NCBI GenBank assembly: GCA_963932905.1
Contig: CAWVRN010000030.1
Span: forward strand, 1 to 61,481
Direction: 5' to 3'
DNA: 61,481 nt
Source of the DNA: an uncultured Bdellovibrio sp.
GTDB lineage: Bacteria; Bdellovibrionota; Bdellovibrionia; Bdellovibrionales; Bdellovibrionaceae
Each line of letters opens with the position of its first letter. Within the stretch, counting starts at the first letter, position 1. Positions 6,001 through 18,000 of this stretch are shown here, in pieces. Position numbers: made by a program.

Positions 6001-9000
6001 ATATGAAAATCAACGATGGCCAAGGCATAGCGACCAATATTCTTTTTTATAAGCGAGATGGCAAACTTAGCACTAGCTGCTTGATGAACAAAAAATCCTT
6101 TTGATTCCAGGATTGACTTAAGCAGACTTAAATTCTCTGGTTTATCATCTACTATTAGAATTGTGTGACTCATTCTCTTATCCCCCCCCGAACAGTTAAC
6201 GATCCGAAAATCGTCTGCCAGATTCACAGAGCAATGTTGGTGCCGGTTGGTTTTCTCAAACTGGGTGTCATAAAATCAATAGCTTAGATCTTGATGTGGA
6301 ATTTCCGCTACAATTTTCGTTCGACACGGCGAACGGGTAAAAAATTCAACTTCTATTTTTGCTATATGAATTAAATATTTAGCTCATAAAGAATTGAAAA
6401 ATAATACCGTCCGGATTACCGGACACGAGTCTCACACGAATTTGAAAAAAATGAATAAGTCGTTGAATTCAAAATCTTTATTGGAAAATGATGAGCGTTC
6501 GGATTTTCGGACGACTTCTTGGAATTGAAATAAATTCCTAAAATGTATTAAAGTTCGACGAAATTAAACGAGGCAAAGTGCGTTTGCGTGAAAATGACAT
6601 TTTTCAACCGCGATGCATAGAAACTGCAATTTGCACTTTTTTGCTCGTCAAGGATATCCTTTTAGTGCATTTTGCAGTATCTGTGCATAAGGCACCAAAT
6701 CCGAGGTAATCAATGAAATTAGAAAATGCTCGTATGGATCATGTGAGCGCAATTAAAAAGTATATCGAAGCCATCGTCGATGCCGATGATATGCACGCGC
6801 TTGTTATAGAAGGACCTCCTGGTTGGGGCAAAACTACTTCCGTCGAAGAATCCCTAAAGCTTGCCAAGATTGAGGCACACCATTTAGGAGCCTATTCAAC
6901 GCCGCTTAATCTATATAATTTTTTAGCTGAATATTTTGATCAAGTGGTACTTTTAGATGATTGCGCCGGGATATTTAATGATCCAAGCGCGATGGCAATT
7001 CTAAAAGCAGCCACTTGGCCATCTAAAGGAAACAAGCGTCTTGTTAAATGGGGATCGACTTCATCTAAAGCGAGTACTTCTGAATTTGAGTTTCTAGGAA
7101 AATTAATTATAGTTTGTAATTCATTTCCAAAAACTGCCGATGGTGAGGCAATAAAATCCCGAGGTTATTCCAGAAAAATTGATATTACGTTAACCGAAGC
7201 TAAAAAGTTTTTGCTAACTGCCGCTTCTCAAAAAAGATGGTATCCAAAAACAAAACTAGCAGTAGAGGTAGTCGATTTTTTGCTGAGTCATGCGACTGAA
7301 AGTACGCTATCTCAAATCAGTTTTAGAACCTTAAAAAAGGGCTATAGATTAGCCGAAGTCCATCCTGATTCATGGAAGGAATTATTCTCTGATACTCTTC
7401 CTAAGGGATCTCTCGATCCAGAAACTTTAGTTAAAGAACTCGCTAGGCAAGGCCTTAAGGTTAAAGACCAAGCCAGAATCTTTAGCGATAGAACCGGCAA
7501 GAAAGTGAGATCGTTTTATAATTATAGAAAAGAAGCAAGAGTTGGCAGAAATGCCGCAAAATAAATTCTTTTTTTCTAGAATTTAGGAAAGTCTTCGATT
7601 AATACGATCAAAAACTTTAAAAGCTGATTTGAAATCTTTTTTATCATCTTCGTTTAGAACAAAATTTGCAGGTGCTATTAGTTTTAATGGATCAATATTC
7701 AGGGTCGCGGCAAGAGTAGAGATCGTCGAGAGCCTAACGTCAGAAACTAGCAGATTTTCTATTTCGTTTATCGTGGATATTGAAACCCCTGATACCTTTG
7801 AGAGTTTATTTTGCGAAAGGCCATTTTGCTCTCGGTAATATTTAAGCATACTTCCTAGGTGCCTCACGAGGCGATTGAGCTGCTTATCATTGTAATGTTT
7901 AACACTTCTTGGCATACGACCCCTGTTCTCCGTAAAGGTAAATATACGGAAAAGGAGCAATGCTCGGGTATTTCTCTATTTCATAATACTATCGTTTATA
8001 AAGTAAAGCGGCGGCCTTCGGCCTAAGCCTACCAGACGCCGCTTTTCAGCGATATTTGTCTGACACCAGAGTGGCATCAGCGCAGGAGTAATGACCTGGA
8101 CATAGCCTTGGCACGCAGATGTAATCCGTAGACGACATCTTCCGGCCGTTTTTCTTGAGCTGTGTGCTCACGAGGCGGAACCCCACATTGTTGTTGCGAT
8201 TACCAGGCGAGTTGTTGTTCCGATTACCCGAACGCAAGTTCTGCGCATTGTTGTTCCAACTACCGCCACGGATGACGCGGTTAGAGCCCGTAATGTTGGT
8301 CATTACACCGTATTTAATGATTCTTTAAAAATGCCCCTCCTGACAGACAATGAGTTTACATGACTGACATGTGCGACAATACTTCCCACAGAATTTATCA
8401 AGTCCCTTTCGGAAACATGCCCCTTTTTAAACTGAATCTCTTTTTTTCTAATTTTGATTCTCATGCGAGATAAGTTTTCTCTTTTGAGTCGAATAAGCTG
8501 CGGGAAAATTCGAAATCCTAAGAATGGAATCCCTTCAGACACAGGAGCTATCTGAGTTACCTTTTCTTTAAGTTCGATCTTCAGGACTTGAGTTACAAAT
8601 TGATCAATTTTTGAATGTAAATCCCAAAGTTCCTTTTTGCTGTCTGCAAAACAGATAAAGTCATCCATGTAGCGGACATAACCTTTTATTCCGAATCGAT
8701 CTTTGATAAGGTGGTCCAATTCGCCTAGATATAAATTTGCAAAATGCTGGCTGGTCAGATTTCCAATCGGAAGACCGCGACCCGCTAAATTTCCAGGGAC
8801 TTTATGGTCAATTATCAGATCAAGAACCCAAAGTAGATCCTTATCTTTAAAAAGCCTTCGTAAGATATTTTTTAAGACTTGGTGGTCGATACTTTCAAAA
8901 AACTTTTTAATGTCACACTTTAGATAATATGGGTACTTTCGGGCGAATTCTTGGCATCTTGAAACAGCAAGGTGCGCGCCTTTGCCAACACGACAGGCGT

Positions 9001-15000: not shown

Positions 15001-18000
15001 CGGCGAAGTTCACTTCTTACATTGGCTTCAGATTTGACTTTGTTGTAAATCGCTTCACGCATATCATCACCTGATACGCCAAAATAAAGATCTTGCAAAT
15101 CGTTTCCAGTCATCCAAATGACGATTTTAGATAGATCATATTTGCGACCTGTATTTGGTGAAACCCAAAAGCCTTCTTCCATAATATTGTAAAACTTGTA
15201 AAGAATCTGTTCTCGCTCTTGTGGGTTCTTGCCACCAGCATTTGAGATTTCATCTAAAATAAGAATACCGCCGTCTTTGATTTGAAGAAGTGCCTTTTCA
15301 AAAAGACCCATTTGATCTGATTTCACATACTGCGGATTAGCTCCGAAAATCTTAGTCAAATCTTCCTGACGAGAAATATCACCCATTGCGATAATCTGTG
15401 CCTTAGAGCTTGAGCCATAAAGCTCTTTTGCAAGCACCTTCGGAGTTTCAGTTTTTCCGGTTCCAGTTGAACCAACGGCTACAACCGTCATTGGCTTTCC
15501 GGTCGGGATGACTTTCCAATTTCTGATAGCGTTGATGGATTTAGTAACCATCTCTTCTTGTCCGAAAATTTCTTGGTTCACTCTTGATTCAAGCGTTTTT
15601 AAATCCTTCATATCTTCAGCGGAAAGGCTTTGGCCGTTACCTTTGAAGCTGTGATTCTGAAGCTCTACAGTCTTAGTCGGTGTCTGAACCGAAAAGGCCC
15701 AGTTTCTTTTGGCTCCGTTTTTAACAAGACCTACTTTGATTTCCTTTTCAGACGCAACTTGAGTGATTTCTCCAAAAAATCGCTCAACCGCGCGCGATAA
15801 GTCTCTCACTCCATCTTCTTTATTGTAGGTTTGCTCAGTAATATATTTAATGGCTTCATCAGATATCGAAATATTGATTCCATTTCGCTCTTTAAATGTT
15901 TTTTCACGTTTTGAAATTTCAAGTTTTGCTACTTTTATTGTCGTTTCTAAACTCAGCGGGTTTGCGACAAGGTATGTCCCGATTCGATTAACGATCTCAC
16001 GGGGCAGTTTGTAATTGCTGTCGGCTTCCGTTGGCTGCGTAAATAAATCTTTTAAGTCTTTTTGTGAAAATGAATCCACTCGTCTTTTGACTTCCTCATC
16101 GGACCAATTCGCATAGCCCTCTGGGAAAATTTGGTTTACACCGTGATTTGTAGTAGCCACGATTAAAAGGTTTGGAACTTTTACTCTTTTGCCATTTCCT
16201 TGAGTCACTTCGCCATTATCAAATAGATTCATCGCCAGTTCTTTAAGAGTTTCAGGGTGCATTTTTTCGATTTCATCAATCAATAAAACGCCACCGTATC
16301 GGCCTTTACCTGGGTTTTTCATAAATTCAATAAGGCTTCCAACTGTGTCCTTAAACCCATGTGTGCCCGGCCTTGGCCCGAGTAAACCCGTTAACGATGT
16401 GCTTCTGTCAGAAAAAGCAGCACCATCAATTTTGAAAAATCTGTGCTTCCCGCCGAATAAAACTTCAGCCATACTTTCAGCTAAATAGGTTTTCCCAACG
16501 CCCGTTGGGCCCATGAGCGCGACAACTTGTGGTTTGTCTCCAGATGACAGTAAAAGATTTCTGTAAAGGGACAATGTTGTATCAACCATTTTATCTTGTC
16601 CCAGGATTGAAGATTTTAATTCATCTTTCCGTGCTTCGACAAATTGATTGATCTCACTTAAATTCTGCGGATCTGCTGGAATCTTAGTTCTTCGCTTAAC
16701 AAAAGAGAAAAAATCTGATGCTGAAACACTCTTTTGATTTCTTTCGTGAGCTTCAATAGCTAAATCAACCATGACCTTGATCGGTCCATCAGGGCGAGCC
16801 ACATCGGGCAAAACTTTTTTGTAGTGCTTGACGATCTTCTCAACAATCTCGTCGTCTAGCTTTACGTCGTATCTTTTTTCAACAACTTCGCGCCAAGAAA
16901 GCTTGATGATTTCAATCGTTCGACTTTCAGTGAATTCAGCTACGCCAATCGGCGCAAAGCGCCTCATCATGGCTTCGTCAGAACCAAAGGCAAGCTGAAA
17001 TTCGCGCTCTGTCGTTGCACCAATCAAACGAATTCCATTTTCGTTGGCTGCATCCATCGAGGTTTTAAGAACATTCCACATATCGCTATCAACACTATGG
17101 ATTTCATCTATAAAAAGGATGACGGGCTTTTTTAGCTGCGCTTCAAGCTGTTTGACTGTTTCAACCAAAACTAAAGCCGCATCTTCGGGTTTCTTTCCAA
17201 GTCCCTTAATGCTGGCAGCCTCAAGTTGTATGATCTCAGCCGTTGCAATCTCTTGGCTAAAAACTTTTCCTGTTGGGATTTGGCCCTGAGCTATCATCTG
17301 TGCTATTTTTTCAACGACCGCCGTTTTTCCAACTCCGGCTTCCCCTAAAAGAACAGGGTTTTTACCTTTAATTCGGATCAGAGTATTTATGGCTTGCTGC
17401 GCCTCTTCAGTTCGATCAGCAATTGGTTGAAATTGTCCAGCCGCCAATTTCTTTCGAACATCATCAGTAAGTAGGCGTGGATTAAGGGAAAGAATTAACT
17501 TCCCAGGTTGTGATTGAGTAAGGGTCTCTCGAAGTTGAGCTTGCGCGAAGCTGCCAACGCTTAAAATCAAAATGGTGACCAACGCGTTAATCAGGTGTCT
17601 AAAGTTTTGACAAAGACTCATATCCATTCCCTTCTGTAGAGCCCTCTGAGTGATTGTTTTATCAAGCACGACGACTCATATATGAGGAATACAAGTATTA
17701 TGCCGTTTGACGATATTTAATTTGCCAATCGTTTCATTATGTTATCTAAAGTTTTTCAAATTGAGACGCTTCAGGATGCCTTGATTTTCCAAACACAGAA
17801 TTATCGACTTTGCCAACGATATACGGCTTTTTGAAATTGCCACACCTTTGCTCTGATGTAGTCGGGGATTCCGTAGTCATATTGCGAGTCTCTAATTTCT
17901 ACTATAGGTATATTTCTTTGTAAGGCTACTGCGCGTATGTCCTGAAGAACTTCATCAGAAATTATCTTCTTACCTAATATTGATCCTTTATATGGGTCAA

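Follow-up and report, generated by a model that had tools for sequence, protein, structure and literature searches.

A diversity-generating retroelement, its lectin-tipped target and a putatively exported triple AAA+/M41 protease at one locus of an uncultured Bdellovibrio sp.

The DGR cassette and its target gene

The window (the whole stretch of DNA analysed, 61,481 nucleotides from an uncultured Bdellovibrio sp.) carries a diversity-generating retroelement (DGR), whose target gene adjoins the gene of a triple AAA+/M41 protease. The DGR is complete and intact, with reverse transcriptase (RT), Avd, HRDC protein and TR, and is of the HRDC/Treponema type; the available text of PMC5758913 treats HRDC-type DGRs as 'architecture C', with the Treponema DGR as its typical example. 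Every feature of the locus is on the minus strand, and the coordinates agree with those that the genome-wide survey's note had given.

8167..8291, minus strand: TR, 3' of the RT gene; ungapped 125-nt match to the VR, with 31 adenines
8303..9322, minus strand: DGR reverse transcriptase, 339 aa (Pfam RVT_1, E 2.8e-20)
9300..9704, minus strand: Avd accessory protein (Pfam bAvd, E 9.6e-23)
9679..10257, minus strand: HRDC accessory protein (Pfam HRDC, E 1.4e-21)
10440..10503, minus strand: stem-loop beyond the VR and the target stop codon, ~50 nt downstream
10556..10680, minus strand: VR, codons 1041-1082 of the DGR target gene

Realignment, Pfam and NCBIfam (DivGenRetAVD for Avd, 109.3 bits, cut-off 80) have all reproduced the element as first described: TR and VR differ at 16 of 125 nt, and 16/16 mismatches fall at TR adenines. 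These mismatches are confined to codon positions 1 or 2. Adenine occurs in 17 TR codons, 13 of which are AAY, and the DGR rewrites at most 17 codons of a TvpA-like lectin tip in the 1085-aa target. The HRDC protein probably has its real start at an internal Met, and no second RT of the DGR kind was found in the genome by BLAST. Sister DGRs at two other loci also show A-only differences, with 19 mismatches over 123 nt (L038) and 14 over 126 nt (L091). Taken alone, the DGR is an ordinary one.

In metagenome run X1, the contigs break at 10627 and 10644, inside the VR, and a loose contig end departs from the window sequence at TR-adenine sites. The relative in this run is ~94% identical across the target gene (175 differing letters in 2910 bases), and its VR, compared with the window by eye, differs at 8 of 30 letters, all eight at TR-adenine sites, which we take as a sign of recent mutagenic homing. 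In addition, the DNA fold of 10440-10580 reaches -27.8 kcal/mol (z -3.65), and none of 200 shuffles is as stable; the stem-loop within it may be a homing element.

The target gene and its parts are located as follows.

10543..13800, minus strand: DGR target gene, 1085 aa (translation; AF2 model, mean pLDDT 87.7)
10549..11295, minus strand: FGE-type C-type-lectin domain, residues 836-1084 (structure match to TvpA)
11350..11652, minus strand: ankyrin repeats, residues 717-817 (Pfam Ank_4 and fold matches)
11941..13518, minus strand: helical and GNAT-like alpha/beta domain, residues 95-620 (sub-model pLDDT 93.2)
13564..13587, minus strand: N-side cysteine tag, residues 72-79 around C74 (family conservation)

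From its N-terminus, the protein consists of a signal peptide, a disordered linker with the tag, the helical and GNAT-like domain, the ankyrin repeats and the lectin tip. The lectin assignment is supported by Pfam (FGE-sulfatase/CLec at 838-1082, E 2.4e-33), by Foldseek (E 5.7e-13) and by superposition on Treponema TvpA (2y3c; Z 26.0, rmsd 1.9 over 210 residues, 35% identity). For the ankyrin region, Ank_4 at 724-771 scores 22.8 bits (cut-off 22.7), and fold matches to ankyrin proteins range from Z 10.5 to 8. For the GNAT-like domain, the best 50 structure rows are all GNAT-type acyltransferases with Z 7.1 to 5.8, where Z 7.1 is a level that chance folds reach, and no CoA-binding loop motif was seen by eye. 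Invariant residues of the helical and GNAT-like region are R412, E418, R422, C424, C430, D441, D482, K483 and Q485. The Cys/Asp/His set previously called invariant survives for C424, C430, D441 and D482, which like K483 are conserved in 63/63 family sequences, but not for the histidines (H459 in 50/63, H519 in 53/63).

C74 is conserved in 62/63 family members, and the homologues mostly carry the tag directly after the signal peptide. With a hydrophobic start in 93/120 members of the family, some with a lipobox, the target is predicted to leave the cytoplasm via Sec.

The triple AAA+/M41 protease and its family

The protease gene lies upstream of the target gene and is itself preceded by a gene for a 289-aa protein.

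13797..17621, minus strand: triple AAA+/M41 protease gene, 1274 aa if read from the Met at 17621 (translation, domains)
13800..13838, minus strand: C-terminal cysteine tag of the protease (tag motif; C1281)
13986..14513, minus strand: M41 zinc-protease domain with HEIGH and a later Asp (Pfam PF01434)
14640..15602, minus strand: AAA+ module D3 (Clp D2 type), pore-loop Tyr retained
15690..17471, minus strand: AAA+ modules D1 (Clp D1 type) and D2 (Clp D2 type), Walker A and B intact
17538..17621, minus strand: signal-peptide-like N-terminus with basic n-region, hydrophobic core and A-x-A
17801..18670, minus strand: 289-aa protein upstream of the protease, signal peptide then tag; no Pfam family

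The protease ORF spans 13797-17669, and its start is likely at 17621. Walker A motifs lie at ORF residues 109, 387 and 733 (93, 371 and 717 counted from that Met), and HEIGH at ORF residue 1060 (1044). Peptidase_M41 (PF01434) is matched at ORF 1053-1228 with 37.6 bits (cut-off 29.9), ClpB_D2-small is also matched, and ClpA TIGR02639 gives 312 bits, far below its cut-off of 993. With these Pfam and NCBIfam matches and motifs, the domain plan proposed earlier for both protease and target holds. The pore-loop Tyr is replaced in both D1 and D2. Across 35 family segments of 24-61% identity, the Walker A, Walker B, sensor-1 Asn, Arg finger and sensor-2 of D3 are invariant (35/35), as are the H, E and H of the M41 HExGH and D451. 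An aromatic or aliphatic D3 pore loop occurs in 30 of the segments. All catalytic residues of ATPase and protease are conserved family-wide, and those of the ATPase appear to be under selection.

The family is larger than the 'about 10 clusters' first reported. Matches at E <= 1.3e-38 that reach the M41 part are present in 39 of 400 other genomes of the phylum, and there are at least 101 representatives at 50% identity, each at least 1000 aa long with HExGH. By record title, 22 of 26 full-length loci belong to Bdellovibrionota, as expected from the claimed confinement to this phylum, but the titles of the other four are unspecific or name another group. The 26 genomes of genus g4, in the window's own family, give only weak ClpB-level matches (best E 1.3e-12). 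That the host is a predator is suggested by the source names of relatives.

A hydrophobic start is found in 82 of the 101 representatives, and the remainder mostly look cut or mis-started. In 89 representatives, the net charge averages +1.76 before this start and -0.85 after it; it is higher before than after the hydrophobic span in 75, and the reverse holds in two. The median length of the uncharged span is 20 residues, A-x-A type ends with acidic residues after them are frequent, and lipobox-like sites occur at 3/40 loci and in 8/101 representatives. Since signal peptides and charge bias are family-wide and a few lipobox variants exist, we infer that the protease probably leaves the cytoplasm via Sec. 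For both proteins export was judged by sequence heuristics, and it is further supported because their lone-cysteine tag is common to other signal-peptide proteins; overall, the case for it is stronger than when first proposed. Such an exported AAA+ protease family appears to be undescribed in the literature searched.

The lone-cysteine tag and the proposed effector set

The protease, the target and the upstream 289-aa protein share a short terminal motif with one unpaired cysteine, N-x-C-x-x-F-Y in this genome and C-x-x-hydrophobic-hydrophobic in other lineages. In ~92 proteins of the genome it either follows the signal peptide or stands at the extreme C-terminus: 40 genes have it C-terminally (4.5 expected; 6 for the reversed motif) and 52 N-terminally. 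The three tagged genes in a row at this locus are the only triple cluster in the genome. The tag is present in 54/54 protease tails, 97 of the 101 representatives have a Cys within the last 28 residues, and C1281 is the sole Cys of the mature protease. Signal-like starts are found in 31/40 C-tagged proteins, compared with a baseline of 43%, and the mature Cys count is odd in 58/83 tagged proteins versus 484/1421 other signal-bearing proteins.

Domains among the tagged proteins include ABC1 kinase-like, PPDK ATP-binding, UDPGP-like, glycosyltransferase and acyltransferase ones; some Pfam matches are weak, the PARP match is under its cut-off, and 21/42 tagged proteins have no Pfam family. We suggest that the tag marks the members of an exported effector set and acts, independently of its position, as a handle for sorting or for a thiol link. 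It appears to be undescribed in the literature searched, and its presence on ~92 exported proteins hints at an undescribed effector-delivery route.

As a whole, the locus is best explained, in our cautious judgement, by a DGR-varied lectin-enzyme and an exported protease which belong to a tagged effector set for prey. Through the lectin tip, the attached enzyme would gain a variable hold on a prey molecule, while the protease may be tethered to the target protein or active beside it. Substrate would be passed into the M41 chamber by D3, the last ring and the one with a pore-loop tyrosine. Since several tagged members have ATP- or UTP-using domain families and the ATPase appears to be under selection, the set probably acts in a compartment that contains nucleotides, the prey cell content being the most plausible one. 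Delivery into prey would be part of this reading, and that the DGR also retargets the protease, as first proposed, is a hypothesis. Against the reading, the periplasm is not known to contain ATP, and no path through the outer membrane or into prey was identified.

A less probable but serious alternative is that the two genes are neighbours without partnership, i.e., two exported effectors in one accessory island, with the DGR retargeting the lectin-enzyme only. The window also has an integrase and a Fic gene (20926-23064), and the island was not found in any of the three other species of the genus. The protease occurs in 0/20 other loci of the target's N-terminal family, its closest orthologue (61% identity) is followed by an efflux pump and has no lectin neighbour, and the same upstream slot is elsewhere taken by other C-tagged proteins, one of 609 aa in L075 and one with a DnaJ domain in L087. 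While 36/41 protease loci have no lectin protein beside the protease, the other five, spread over five families, have one directly downstream, with chance adjacency expected to be nearly zero; this argues against independence, as does the 4-nt overlap of the target start codon with the protease stop, which the coordinates bear out. In one locus, protease and lectin even form a single 2327-aa frame without junction tags, though this assembly is 78%-complete and the fusion could be an assembly or sequencing error. Another (G208) has a downstream lectin protein and a second intact DGR, whose RT is 66% identical to that of the window. A modX module also adjoins the protease in four further loci and one other place, which again speaks against independence. 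The pairing that had been proposed is therefore partly supported: by the five lectin loci, one of them fused, but not by the 20 loci of the target family.

On the other hand, both proteins may serve the bacterium's own periplasm or surface, e.g., in self-protection, surface remodelling or adhesion, with little, no or leaked ATP. Signal peptides and lipobox variants do place the protease family in the envelope, DGR lectin targets such as TvpA are lipoproteins of the cell surface, and an exit through the outer membrane or into prey was not identified. We regard this as unlikely, since the kinase-, ATP-grasp-, UDPGP- and glycosyltransferase-like tagged proteins would have no obvious periplasmic substrate, and the invariance of the D3 ATPase residues in 35/35 segments points to real ATP use.

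ATP dependence would be explained most easily in the cytoplasm, if the hydrophobic start were uncleaved and the protein were an FtsH-like, membrane-anchored quality-control protease facing the cytoplasm, with the DGR adjacent by coincidence. The M41 domain is otherwise known from FtsH, and the uncharged span is long enough for a membrane helix. But the charge bias predicts N-in, C-out in 75/89 representatives, and the A-x-A type ends, the lipobox variants and a C-terminal Cys tag common to clear signal-peptide proteins likewise argue for export; a canonical FtsH is encoded elsewhere in the genome (on C10, 234 bits). We consider such an anchor quite improbable. Finally, an NTP-dependent conflict (immunity) system inside the cell, like those of Kaur et al. 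2020, with the lectin sensing invaders and the AAA+/protease executing, would fit the target syntax in the available text of PMC7159879 (other domains N-terminal to the lectin), but is very improbable given the signal peptides on both proteins, the Clp type of the AAA+ modules and the lack of any MoxR, vWA or VMAP match in protease, target or scanned neighbours.

Comparison with known systems

The cassette resembles the Treponema denticola DGR/TvpA system, architecture C in the available text of Wu et al. 2018 (PMC5758913), in its RT, Avd and HRDC genes, in the TR after the RT and in the adenine-only TR/VR differences. As in TvpA (2y3c), an FGE-type C-type-lectin tip forms the C-terminus of an exported protein. 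The lectin here, however, caps an 835-aa exported body (helical and GNAT-like, ankyrin repeats), and translation of the target gene is coupled to that of an AAA+/M41 protease gene.

With FtsH, the protease shares an M41 domain with HExxH and a later Asp, and an AAA+ ring directly N-terminal of it. FtsH has one classical module and two membrane helices, whereas the protease here has three Clp D1/D2-type AAA+ modules (TIGR01241 51 bits, cut-off 600) and a single cleavable-looking signal peptide, and its predicted topology is opposite. Like the class I Hsp100 unfoldases ClpA, ClpB and ClpV, it has D1 and D2, which align over residues 67-654, and D2-small. Unlike them, it has no Clp_N match, its D1 and D2 pore-loop tyrosines are replaced, it adds a third D2-like ring, a fused protease and a signal peptide, and it scores far below the family cut-offs.

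PEP-CTERM, GlyGly-CTERM and MYXO-CTERM are C-terminal, tripartite sorting signals that contain a conserved residue, and eukaryotes have the CaaX box. Like them, the tag is a short, conserved motif at a protein terminus; its conserved residue is an invariant Cys, and it recurs on many exported proteins of one lineage. It differs in that no hydrophobic helix or basic cluster comes after it, in that it occurs at either protein end, and in that its Cys is 5-25 residues away from the stop rather than 4.

Phytoplasma FtsH/AAA+ paralogues, predicted from sequence to face the host cytoplasm in the available text of PMC6981957, offer a parallel, i.e., an AAA+ protease of a cell-dependent bacterium predicted to lie outside its own cytoplasm with host ATP at hand. 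They differ from the present protease in being canonical single-ring membrane FtsH of wall-less bacteria, and their topology predictions conflict. MoxR-vWA ternary conflict systems, as far as the available text of PMC7159879 describes them, come close in another way: their AAA+ ATPases are fused or genetically linked to DGR-diversified TvpA-like lectins, with variable effector domains always N-terminal to the lectin. These systems, found mostly in cyanobacteria and other multicellular bacteria, are unlike the present one in being intracellular, with MoxR and vWA and without signal peptides.

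The AAA+/M41 protease and its predicted export

The unusual parts of the finding are a catalytically conserved and putatively exported family of triple-AAA+/M41 proteases, and a terminal tag with a lone cysteine. The protease belongs to a group of genes transcribed from the minus strand in the order 289-aa protein, AAA+/M41 protein, 1085-aa target of the diversity-generating retroelement (DGR), HRDC protein, Avd, reverse transcriptase (RT) and template repeat (TR), with the variable repeat (VR) inside the target gene:

18670-17801, minus strand: 289-aa protein, first gene in transcription order
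17669-13797, minus strand: ORF of the AAA+/M41 protein, likely start 17621
13800-10543, minus strand: 1085-aa target
10680-10556, minus strand: VR, codons 1041-1082 of the target's 1085
10257-9679, minus strand: HRDC protein (HRDC confirmed by Pfam and NCBIfam)
9704-9300, minus strand: Avd (bAvd/DGR-Avd; NF033474, 109.3 bits against a cut-off of 80)
9322-8303, minus strand: RT (RVT_1, E 2.8e-20)
8291-8167, minus strand: TR, starting 12 nt past the RT stop

Residues 67-654 of the protease align with ClpA, ClpV and ClpB as two AAA+ modules (D1 and D2) with a D2-small domain. The Clp-type matches are AAA, AAA_2 and ClpB_D2-small in Pfam, and the protein has also been aligned to the genome's own ClpA and ClpB. 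Its ClpA family score is 312 bits against a cut-off of 993, and Clp_N (PF02861), which ClpB/ClpC relatives have, was not found among the listed 25 of the 42 matched Pfam families. C-terminal to D1-D2 come a third module of D2 type (D3) and then the M41 domain (PF01434, 37.6 bits against a cut-off of 29.9). Walker A and B are intact in D1, D2 and D3, and HExGH is intact as well; the architecture described in the genome-wide survey's note, i.e., three AAA modules, ClpB_D2-small and M41, is borne out. Set against ClpA and ClpB of the genome itself, D1 has Lys and D2 has Thr where the pore-loop Tyr would stand; Tyr is kept only in D3, the ring adjoining the protease.

We have compared 35 family segments, which are 24-61% identical. 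All of them keep the Walker A Gly/Gly/Lys, Walker B Glu, sensor-1 Asn and Arg finger of D3, and equally the sensor-2 Gly-x-Arg, H-E-x-G-H and the later Asp that serves as third zinc ligand. At the pore-loop position of D3, 30 of them have Tyr, Phe, Ile, His or Val. Since the catalytic residues are invariant in 35/35, the alignments argue that the family is under selection both as an ATPase and as a protease.

The family is also larger than the about 10 clusters of homologues counted before, as we have found at least 101 representatives at 50% identity, each of at least 1000 aa and with HExGH. Matches through the M41 part at E <= 1.3e-38 occur in 39 of 400 other genomes of the phylum, spread over many families; genus g4, with 26 genomes from the window's own family, gives only weak, ClpB-level matches to the protease query. 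The earlier statement that the proteases are confined to Bdellovibrionota agrees with the record titles of 22 of the 26 full-length loci found in 185,579 species genomes by a pattern that excluded the window's own HEIGH variant, and the remaining four are titled 'Alphaproteobacteria', 'Pseudomonadota', 'Deltaproteobacteria' and 'uncultured bacterium'.

We have scored the criteria of a Sec (type I) signal peptide for the protease, the target and their families by our own heuristics. The expected features (basic n-region, hydrophobic core, small-x-small site) are seen in both proteins and in their families, which supports the signal peptides claimed for the two. In the protease, the N-terminus shows a basic n-region, a hydrophobic core and an A-x-A end, and the letters vary among close relatives while the features stay constant. 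Family-wide, 82 of the 101 representatives have a hydrophobic start, and most others seem to be cut or mis-started. The flanking charges point the same way. On the two sides of the uncharged span in 89 representatives, the net charge is +1.76 over the 12 residues ahead of it and -0.85 over the 12 behind; the value ahead is the higher one in 75, equal in 12 and lower in 2. According to the positive-inside rule, this bias would place the bulk of the protease outside, that is, in a topology opposite to that of FtsH. Lipobox-like sites, seen in 3 of 40 protease loci and 8 of 101 representatives, also count for export, because such sites are meaningful only on exported proteins. Overall, these N-terminal features make it probable that the protease is exported. 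Low cysteine content was considered as a further sign and rejected, since ClpB of the same genome likewise contains just one Cys.

The retroelement and its target protein

The DGR is a standard element of the HRDC subtype, real and ordinary in kind. HRDC-bearing DGRs form the rare 'architecture C' of Wu et al., which in their account covers 14 of 372 surveyed elements, with the Treponema element as the typical case (PMC5758913). The RT, Avd and HRDC genes named in the survey's note were recovered with both Pfam and NCBIfam, and BLAST has found only one RT of DGR kind in the 4.55-Mb genome. TR and VR align over 125 nt without gaps and with 16 mismatches, 16/16 at TR adenines just as had been stated, and all falling on codon position 1 or 2 of the target. 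The TR has 17 adenine-bearing codons, 13 of them AAY; computed from the TR codons, about 10^17.7 protein variants are possible and a stop codon is impossible. TR and VR agree fully over their final ~25 nt, a GC-rich stretch, and fold computation gives a stable stem-loop downstream of VR (10440-10503, z -3.65); these are candidates for the IMH and the stem-loop expected behind the VR of a DGR.

The AF2 model of the target (63 homologues, mean pLDDT 87.7) contains the following parts:

N-terminus: signal peptide
Residues 26-95: disordered stretch with a short helix around C74
Residues 100-400: helical domain
Residues 400-600: alpha/beta domain
Residues 600-817: helical and ankyrin repeats, the ankyrin part fold-matching at Z ~10
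Residues 836-1084: lectin

Against Treponema TvpA, the modelled lectin reaches Z 26.0 (rmsd 1.9, 35% identity); against Mtd and TaqVP it reaches Z 12 and Z 11.5. Codons 1041-1082, which make up VR, lie within the C-type-lectin-fold 3' end of the target gene.

For residues 95-620 a sub-model was made (pLDDT 93.2). All of its 50 best structural rows are GNAT-type acyltransferases, at chance-range Z values of 7.1 to 5.8; the row with the best Z has rmsd 3.9 over 146 aligned residues. Foldseek with this sub-model gave no match at E <= 0.001, and its weak rows are malonyl-CoA decarboxylase and ICL2, each combining a helical and a GNAT-like part. ESM Atlas look-alikes for these residues were not informative, and the Pfam scan of the target contained no GNAT match. 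GNAT acyltransferases have an acyl-CoA pyrophosphate-binding loop after strand 4; in a by-eye view of residues 475-505 this loop was not seen, and the invariant D482-K483-x-Q485 is found there instead. Because of the low Z values and the missing Foldseek match, a GNAT-like identity of the alpha/beta domain is a lead only. R412, E418, R422, C424, C430, D441, D482, K483, Q485 and Y508 are kept by 63/63 members of the target family. The histidines previously described as invariant in this domain are not so, being conserved in just 50/63 and 53/63.

By its N-terminal 670 residues, the target belongs to a family with 166 or more clusters at 90% identity, which was found in 22 of 401 genomes of the phylum. 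Its members vary, with a lectin in some and longer ankyrin arrays instead in others. A hydrophobic signal-like start is seen in 93 of 120 members, and a lipobox in a few.

A hint of homing comes from metagenomes. Relatives 90-97% identical are present in sludge, sediment and outdoor metagenomes, and we have compared assembled contigs from four runs of three studies. In one run (X1), the contigs have the gene order of the window and one contig bridges the protease-target junction; they are broken within VR, at 10627 and 10644. Ahead of 10644, 30 loose letters of a single contig, compared by eye and with a one-letter doubt of register, include 8 that differ from the window, and all 8 are TR-adenine sites. 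The remainder of the same contig has 175 other letters per 2910 aligned bases. The VR difference in this run is a good hint of recent mutagenic homing, not proof of it.

Around the locus we have observed the following genes:

20926-22032, minus strand: phage-type integrase, upstream
22084-23064, minus strand: Fic/DOC gene, upstream
7583-7960: XRE-type HTH gene, downstream
6713-7960: weak nSTAND3-like gene, together with the HTH gene in this interval, downstream

There is no tRNA gene in the window, and hence no island boundary is defined. A search of three other species of the genus gave neither the target family nor any close relative of the protease, so from gene content the region looks accessory and may be an island. 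The source names of relatives are Bdellovibrionales, Pseudobdellovibrio sp. and Bdellovibrionaceae.

The lone-cysteine tag and the proteins that carry it

Complete members of the protease family (54/54) end with a lone Cys that stands 5-25 residues ahead of the stop and has hydrophobic residues at its +3 and +4 positions. Counting all representatives, 97 of 101 have a Cys within the last 28 residues, at a mean of 2.5 Cys per protein. In the window's protease the tag Cys is C1281, and its one other Cys is part of the signal peptide. The target family has the motif just behind the signal peptide, where C74 is kept in 62/63, and two further families of large proteins adjoining these proteases have it after the signal peptide too. 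At one related locus (genome G208), an identical 9-residue stretch occurs in the protease tail and in the target's mature N-terminus.

Throughout the window's genome, C-x-x-[FVILWM]-Y stands in the last 20 residues of 40 genes, against 4.5 expected from the interior rate and 6 for the reversed motif, and the tag follows soon after a signal-like N-terminus in 52 genes. The logo is the same at both ends: N-x-C-x-x-F-Y, then a basic residue. Signal-like starts are found in 31 of the 40 C-tagged proteins, compared with a baseline of 43% under the same lax test. The mature Cys count is odd in 58 of 83 tagged proteins versus 484 of 1421 other signal-bearing proteins, and the tag Cys is the sole one in 38 of the 83; judging from these counts, the tag Cys seems to be unpaired. 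Only once in the genome do three tagged genes cluster together, namely in the three adjacent genes of the finding. In other genomes, the C-terminal form occurs in 18 of 471 neighbouring ORFs and the reversed motif in 2.

The proteins bearing the tag are diverse, and half of those scanned (21/42) match no Pfam family. The matches comprise ABC1 kinase-like domains (two in the window's genome, one within the window), a PPDK-type ATP-binding domain, a UDPGP-like nucleotidyltransferase, a glycosyltransferase, a combined PlsC and GNAT acyltransferase, a deformylase-like domain, a ParB-like nuclease and a PARP-like match below its cut-off. There are also phospholipase D (two), GDPD, APP1 and PhoD phosphatases, S8, S9 and S41 peptidases, and a C92 amidase. 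Further tagged proteins of the window are:

33061-35106, plus strand: 681-aa protein, C-terminally tagged, in which a clear signal peptide is combined with an ABC1 atypical-kinase-like domain (65 bits)
46916-48181, minus strand: 421-aa protein of no family, tag after the signal peptide
60457-61431, plus strand: calcineurin-like phosphoesterase, tag at the end

The window's genome has one paralogue of the protease, 25% identical and 1212 aa long (contig C35, 1562-5200, minus strand). It starts with a signal peptide and an unknown N-terminal part of 300 aa, continues with two AAA+ modules and M41 (HEAGH), and ends in the C-terminal tag. A DGR is absent from its surroundings, and an N-tagged deformylase-like protein lies ~2.5 kb off.

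Tagged proteins were also met at loci of other genomes. A 749-aa protein (L087, G219:C2, locus 5644-7893) carries, besides a C-terminal tag, a DnaJ domain (residues 41-104, 94.6 bits); its gene lies directly upstream of, and overlaps, a homologue of the DGR target. A 1677-aa protein (L042, G283:C41, locus 7107-12140) with a signal peptide, an ABC1 kinase-like domain and a C-terminal tag is encoded between the protease gene and that of modX, the N-terminal module of lectin-tipped proteins beside other members of the protease family. Cluster c4 (L035, L040, L044; e.g. L035:847-4080) consists of ~1000-aa signal-peptide proteins with no Pfam family and an N-terminal tag, and its genes adjoin the protease gene in three genomes, that of the closest orthologue included.

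Several members of the tagged set have activities that call for ATP, UTP, NAD, nucleotide sugars, acyl carriers or a partner Hsp70. Since such cofactor-needing proteins, apparently exported, stand with an AAA+ protease under one tag, we infer that the set would work in a compartment with cytoplasmic cofactors, for which the prey cell content is the obvious candidate in this phylum.

Possible partnership of protease and target, and known systems

The pairing of protease and target proposed in the survey's note has found evidence on both sides. The two genes overlap by 4 nt, and a lectin-tipped protein is encoded directly downstream in 5 of 41 protease loci (the window and genomes G172, G208, G332 and G015). 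The G208 locus (L038) has an intact DGR, with an RT 66% identical and a TR/VR of 123 nt with 19 A-only mismatches. The G172 locus (L037, contig C5, 4049-12164) is a decayed sister locus, its lectin target split by insertion-sequence genes and its RT a 124-aa fragment. In G015 (L059, contig C172, locus 3967-10949), AAA+/M41 protease, modX and lectin are joined in one 2327-aa frame, which has neither a signal peptide at the junction nor tags, and runs to the contig end in a 78%-complete assembly. Against the pairing, the protease was found at 0/20 other loci of the window target's family, and a DGR cassette at only 2/20.

The targets themselves are of two types. modX, which has no Pfam family, is the N-terminal module of the G172, G208, G332 and G015 targets, and, in favour of a pairing, it adjoins the protease at four further loci of those compared and at one place outside them. 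Against it, most modX copies are not beside a protease, and the modX profile gave no match in the window's target or anywhere in the window's genome, and only the region of residues 610-1085 is common to both types. A search around CLec-type relatives has found a TR at 2 of 16 loci (L038 and L091); at L081 the contig ends inside the RT gene, and the other 13 are without TR in the DNA covered. The nearest orthologues also speak against a pairing: behind the closest protease orthologue (G226, 61% identical) lies an RND efflux operon, and the closest target orthologue found (G176, 73% over the BLAST alignment) has a different C-tagged 609-aa protein upstream, overlapping.

In a quick tree of the protease family, from which the truncated L056 was omitted, the window's protease is sister to that of G226 and not to the G172/G208 pair with the other DGR. 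It lies with this pair inside one 13-row clade (support 95), and therefore the DGR-protease link may have had a single origin. Our reading of the gene orders is that C-tagged and N-tagged genes often form coupled pairs, of which the window locus would be one. That the two free cysteines might link the proteins physically is an attractive idea, as precisely these two ends are joined in the G015 fusion. Overall, we hold the partnership of protease and target to be tentative, a little short of probable.

For the whole, delivery into prey and retargeting of the protease by the DGR are proposed. A Sec signal together with a one-free-cysteine tag (N-x-C-x-x-F-Y here) would mark a large set of Bdellovibrionota effectors that pass from the envelope into the prey cell, including enzymes that need ATP, UTP and other cytoplasmic cofactors and, as the most striking member, a three-ring AAA+ unfoldase fused to M41. 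A disulfide between tag cysteines would link the C-terminus of this protease to the N-terminus of the DGR-diversified lectin-enzyme, the two being a single fused protein in one lineage, and the retroelement would re-aim the ATP-driven degradation machine at changing prey molecules. Taken together, we regard this full scheme as unlikely.

Bacterial AAA+ proteases are textbook cytoplasmic machines. If true, a conserved and catalytically intact family bearing export signals would place ATP-driven proteolysis beyond the producing cell, in the content of a victim's cell, and predatory bacteria would gain an effector class that has no described counterpart in the literature searched. The DGR link, if true, would be programmed hypermutation serving predation, not phage tropism or surface variation. 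The tag offers a simple, testable sequence rule to list effectors of uncultured predators and to find the recognition machinery, and ordinary genetics and biochemistry suffice to test these ideas in what is a non-pathogenic group.

Our literature search has found no paper on DGRs in Bdellovibrionota, though supplements of the large DGR surveys, which lay outside it, may list some, and nothing on exported AAA+ proteases of predators or on the cysteine tag. AAA, FtsH, M41, reverse transcriptase, retroelement and ankyrin are all unmentioned in PMC11656739. For outward-facing AAA+ proteases, the account of phytoplasma FtsH paralogues gives a sequence-based precedent (PMC6981957). The closest described link between an AAA+ ATPase and DGR lectins is that of the intracellular MoxR-vWA systems of Kaur et al. 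(PMC7159879). These are alike in having effector domains N-terminal to the lectin; as those systems are described there, they differ from the window's proteins in being without signal peptides and without Clp or M41 parts.

With class I Hsp100 proteins (ClpA/ClpB), the window's protease has in common the tandem D1/D2 AAA+ modules with D2-small domain, but it differs by the absent Clp_N match, the sub-cut-off score and the replaced pore-loop Tyr of D1 and D2. With the FtsH family (TIGR01241) it has in common the M41 domain, with HExxH and the third zinc ligand Asp; however, it scores 51 bits against a cut-off of 600 with the protease part alone aligning, and one classical AAA module is the FtsH feature. 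FtsH has two N-terminal membrane helices and a cytoplasmic catalytic part, whereas the window's protease has one hydrophobic span between its basic n-region and A-x-A end. As for the tag, C-terminal sorting signals of the PEP-CTERM, GlyGly-CTERM and MYXO-CTERM types have a membrane helix and a basic cluster behind their motif. In contrast, the 40 C-tagged proteins of the window's genome have 0-7 residues beyond the motif's Tyr, most of them polar or basic, and the tag is found N-terminally too in this genome.
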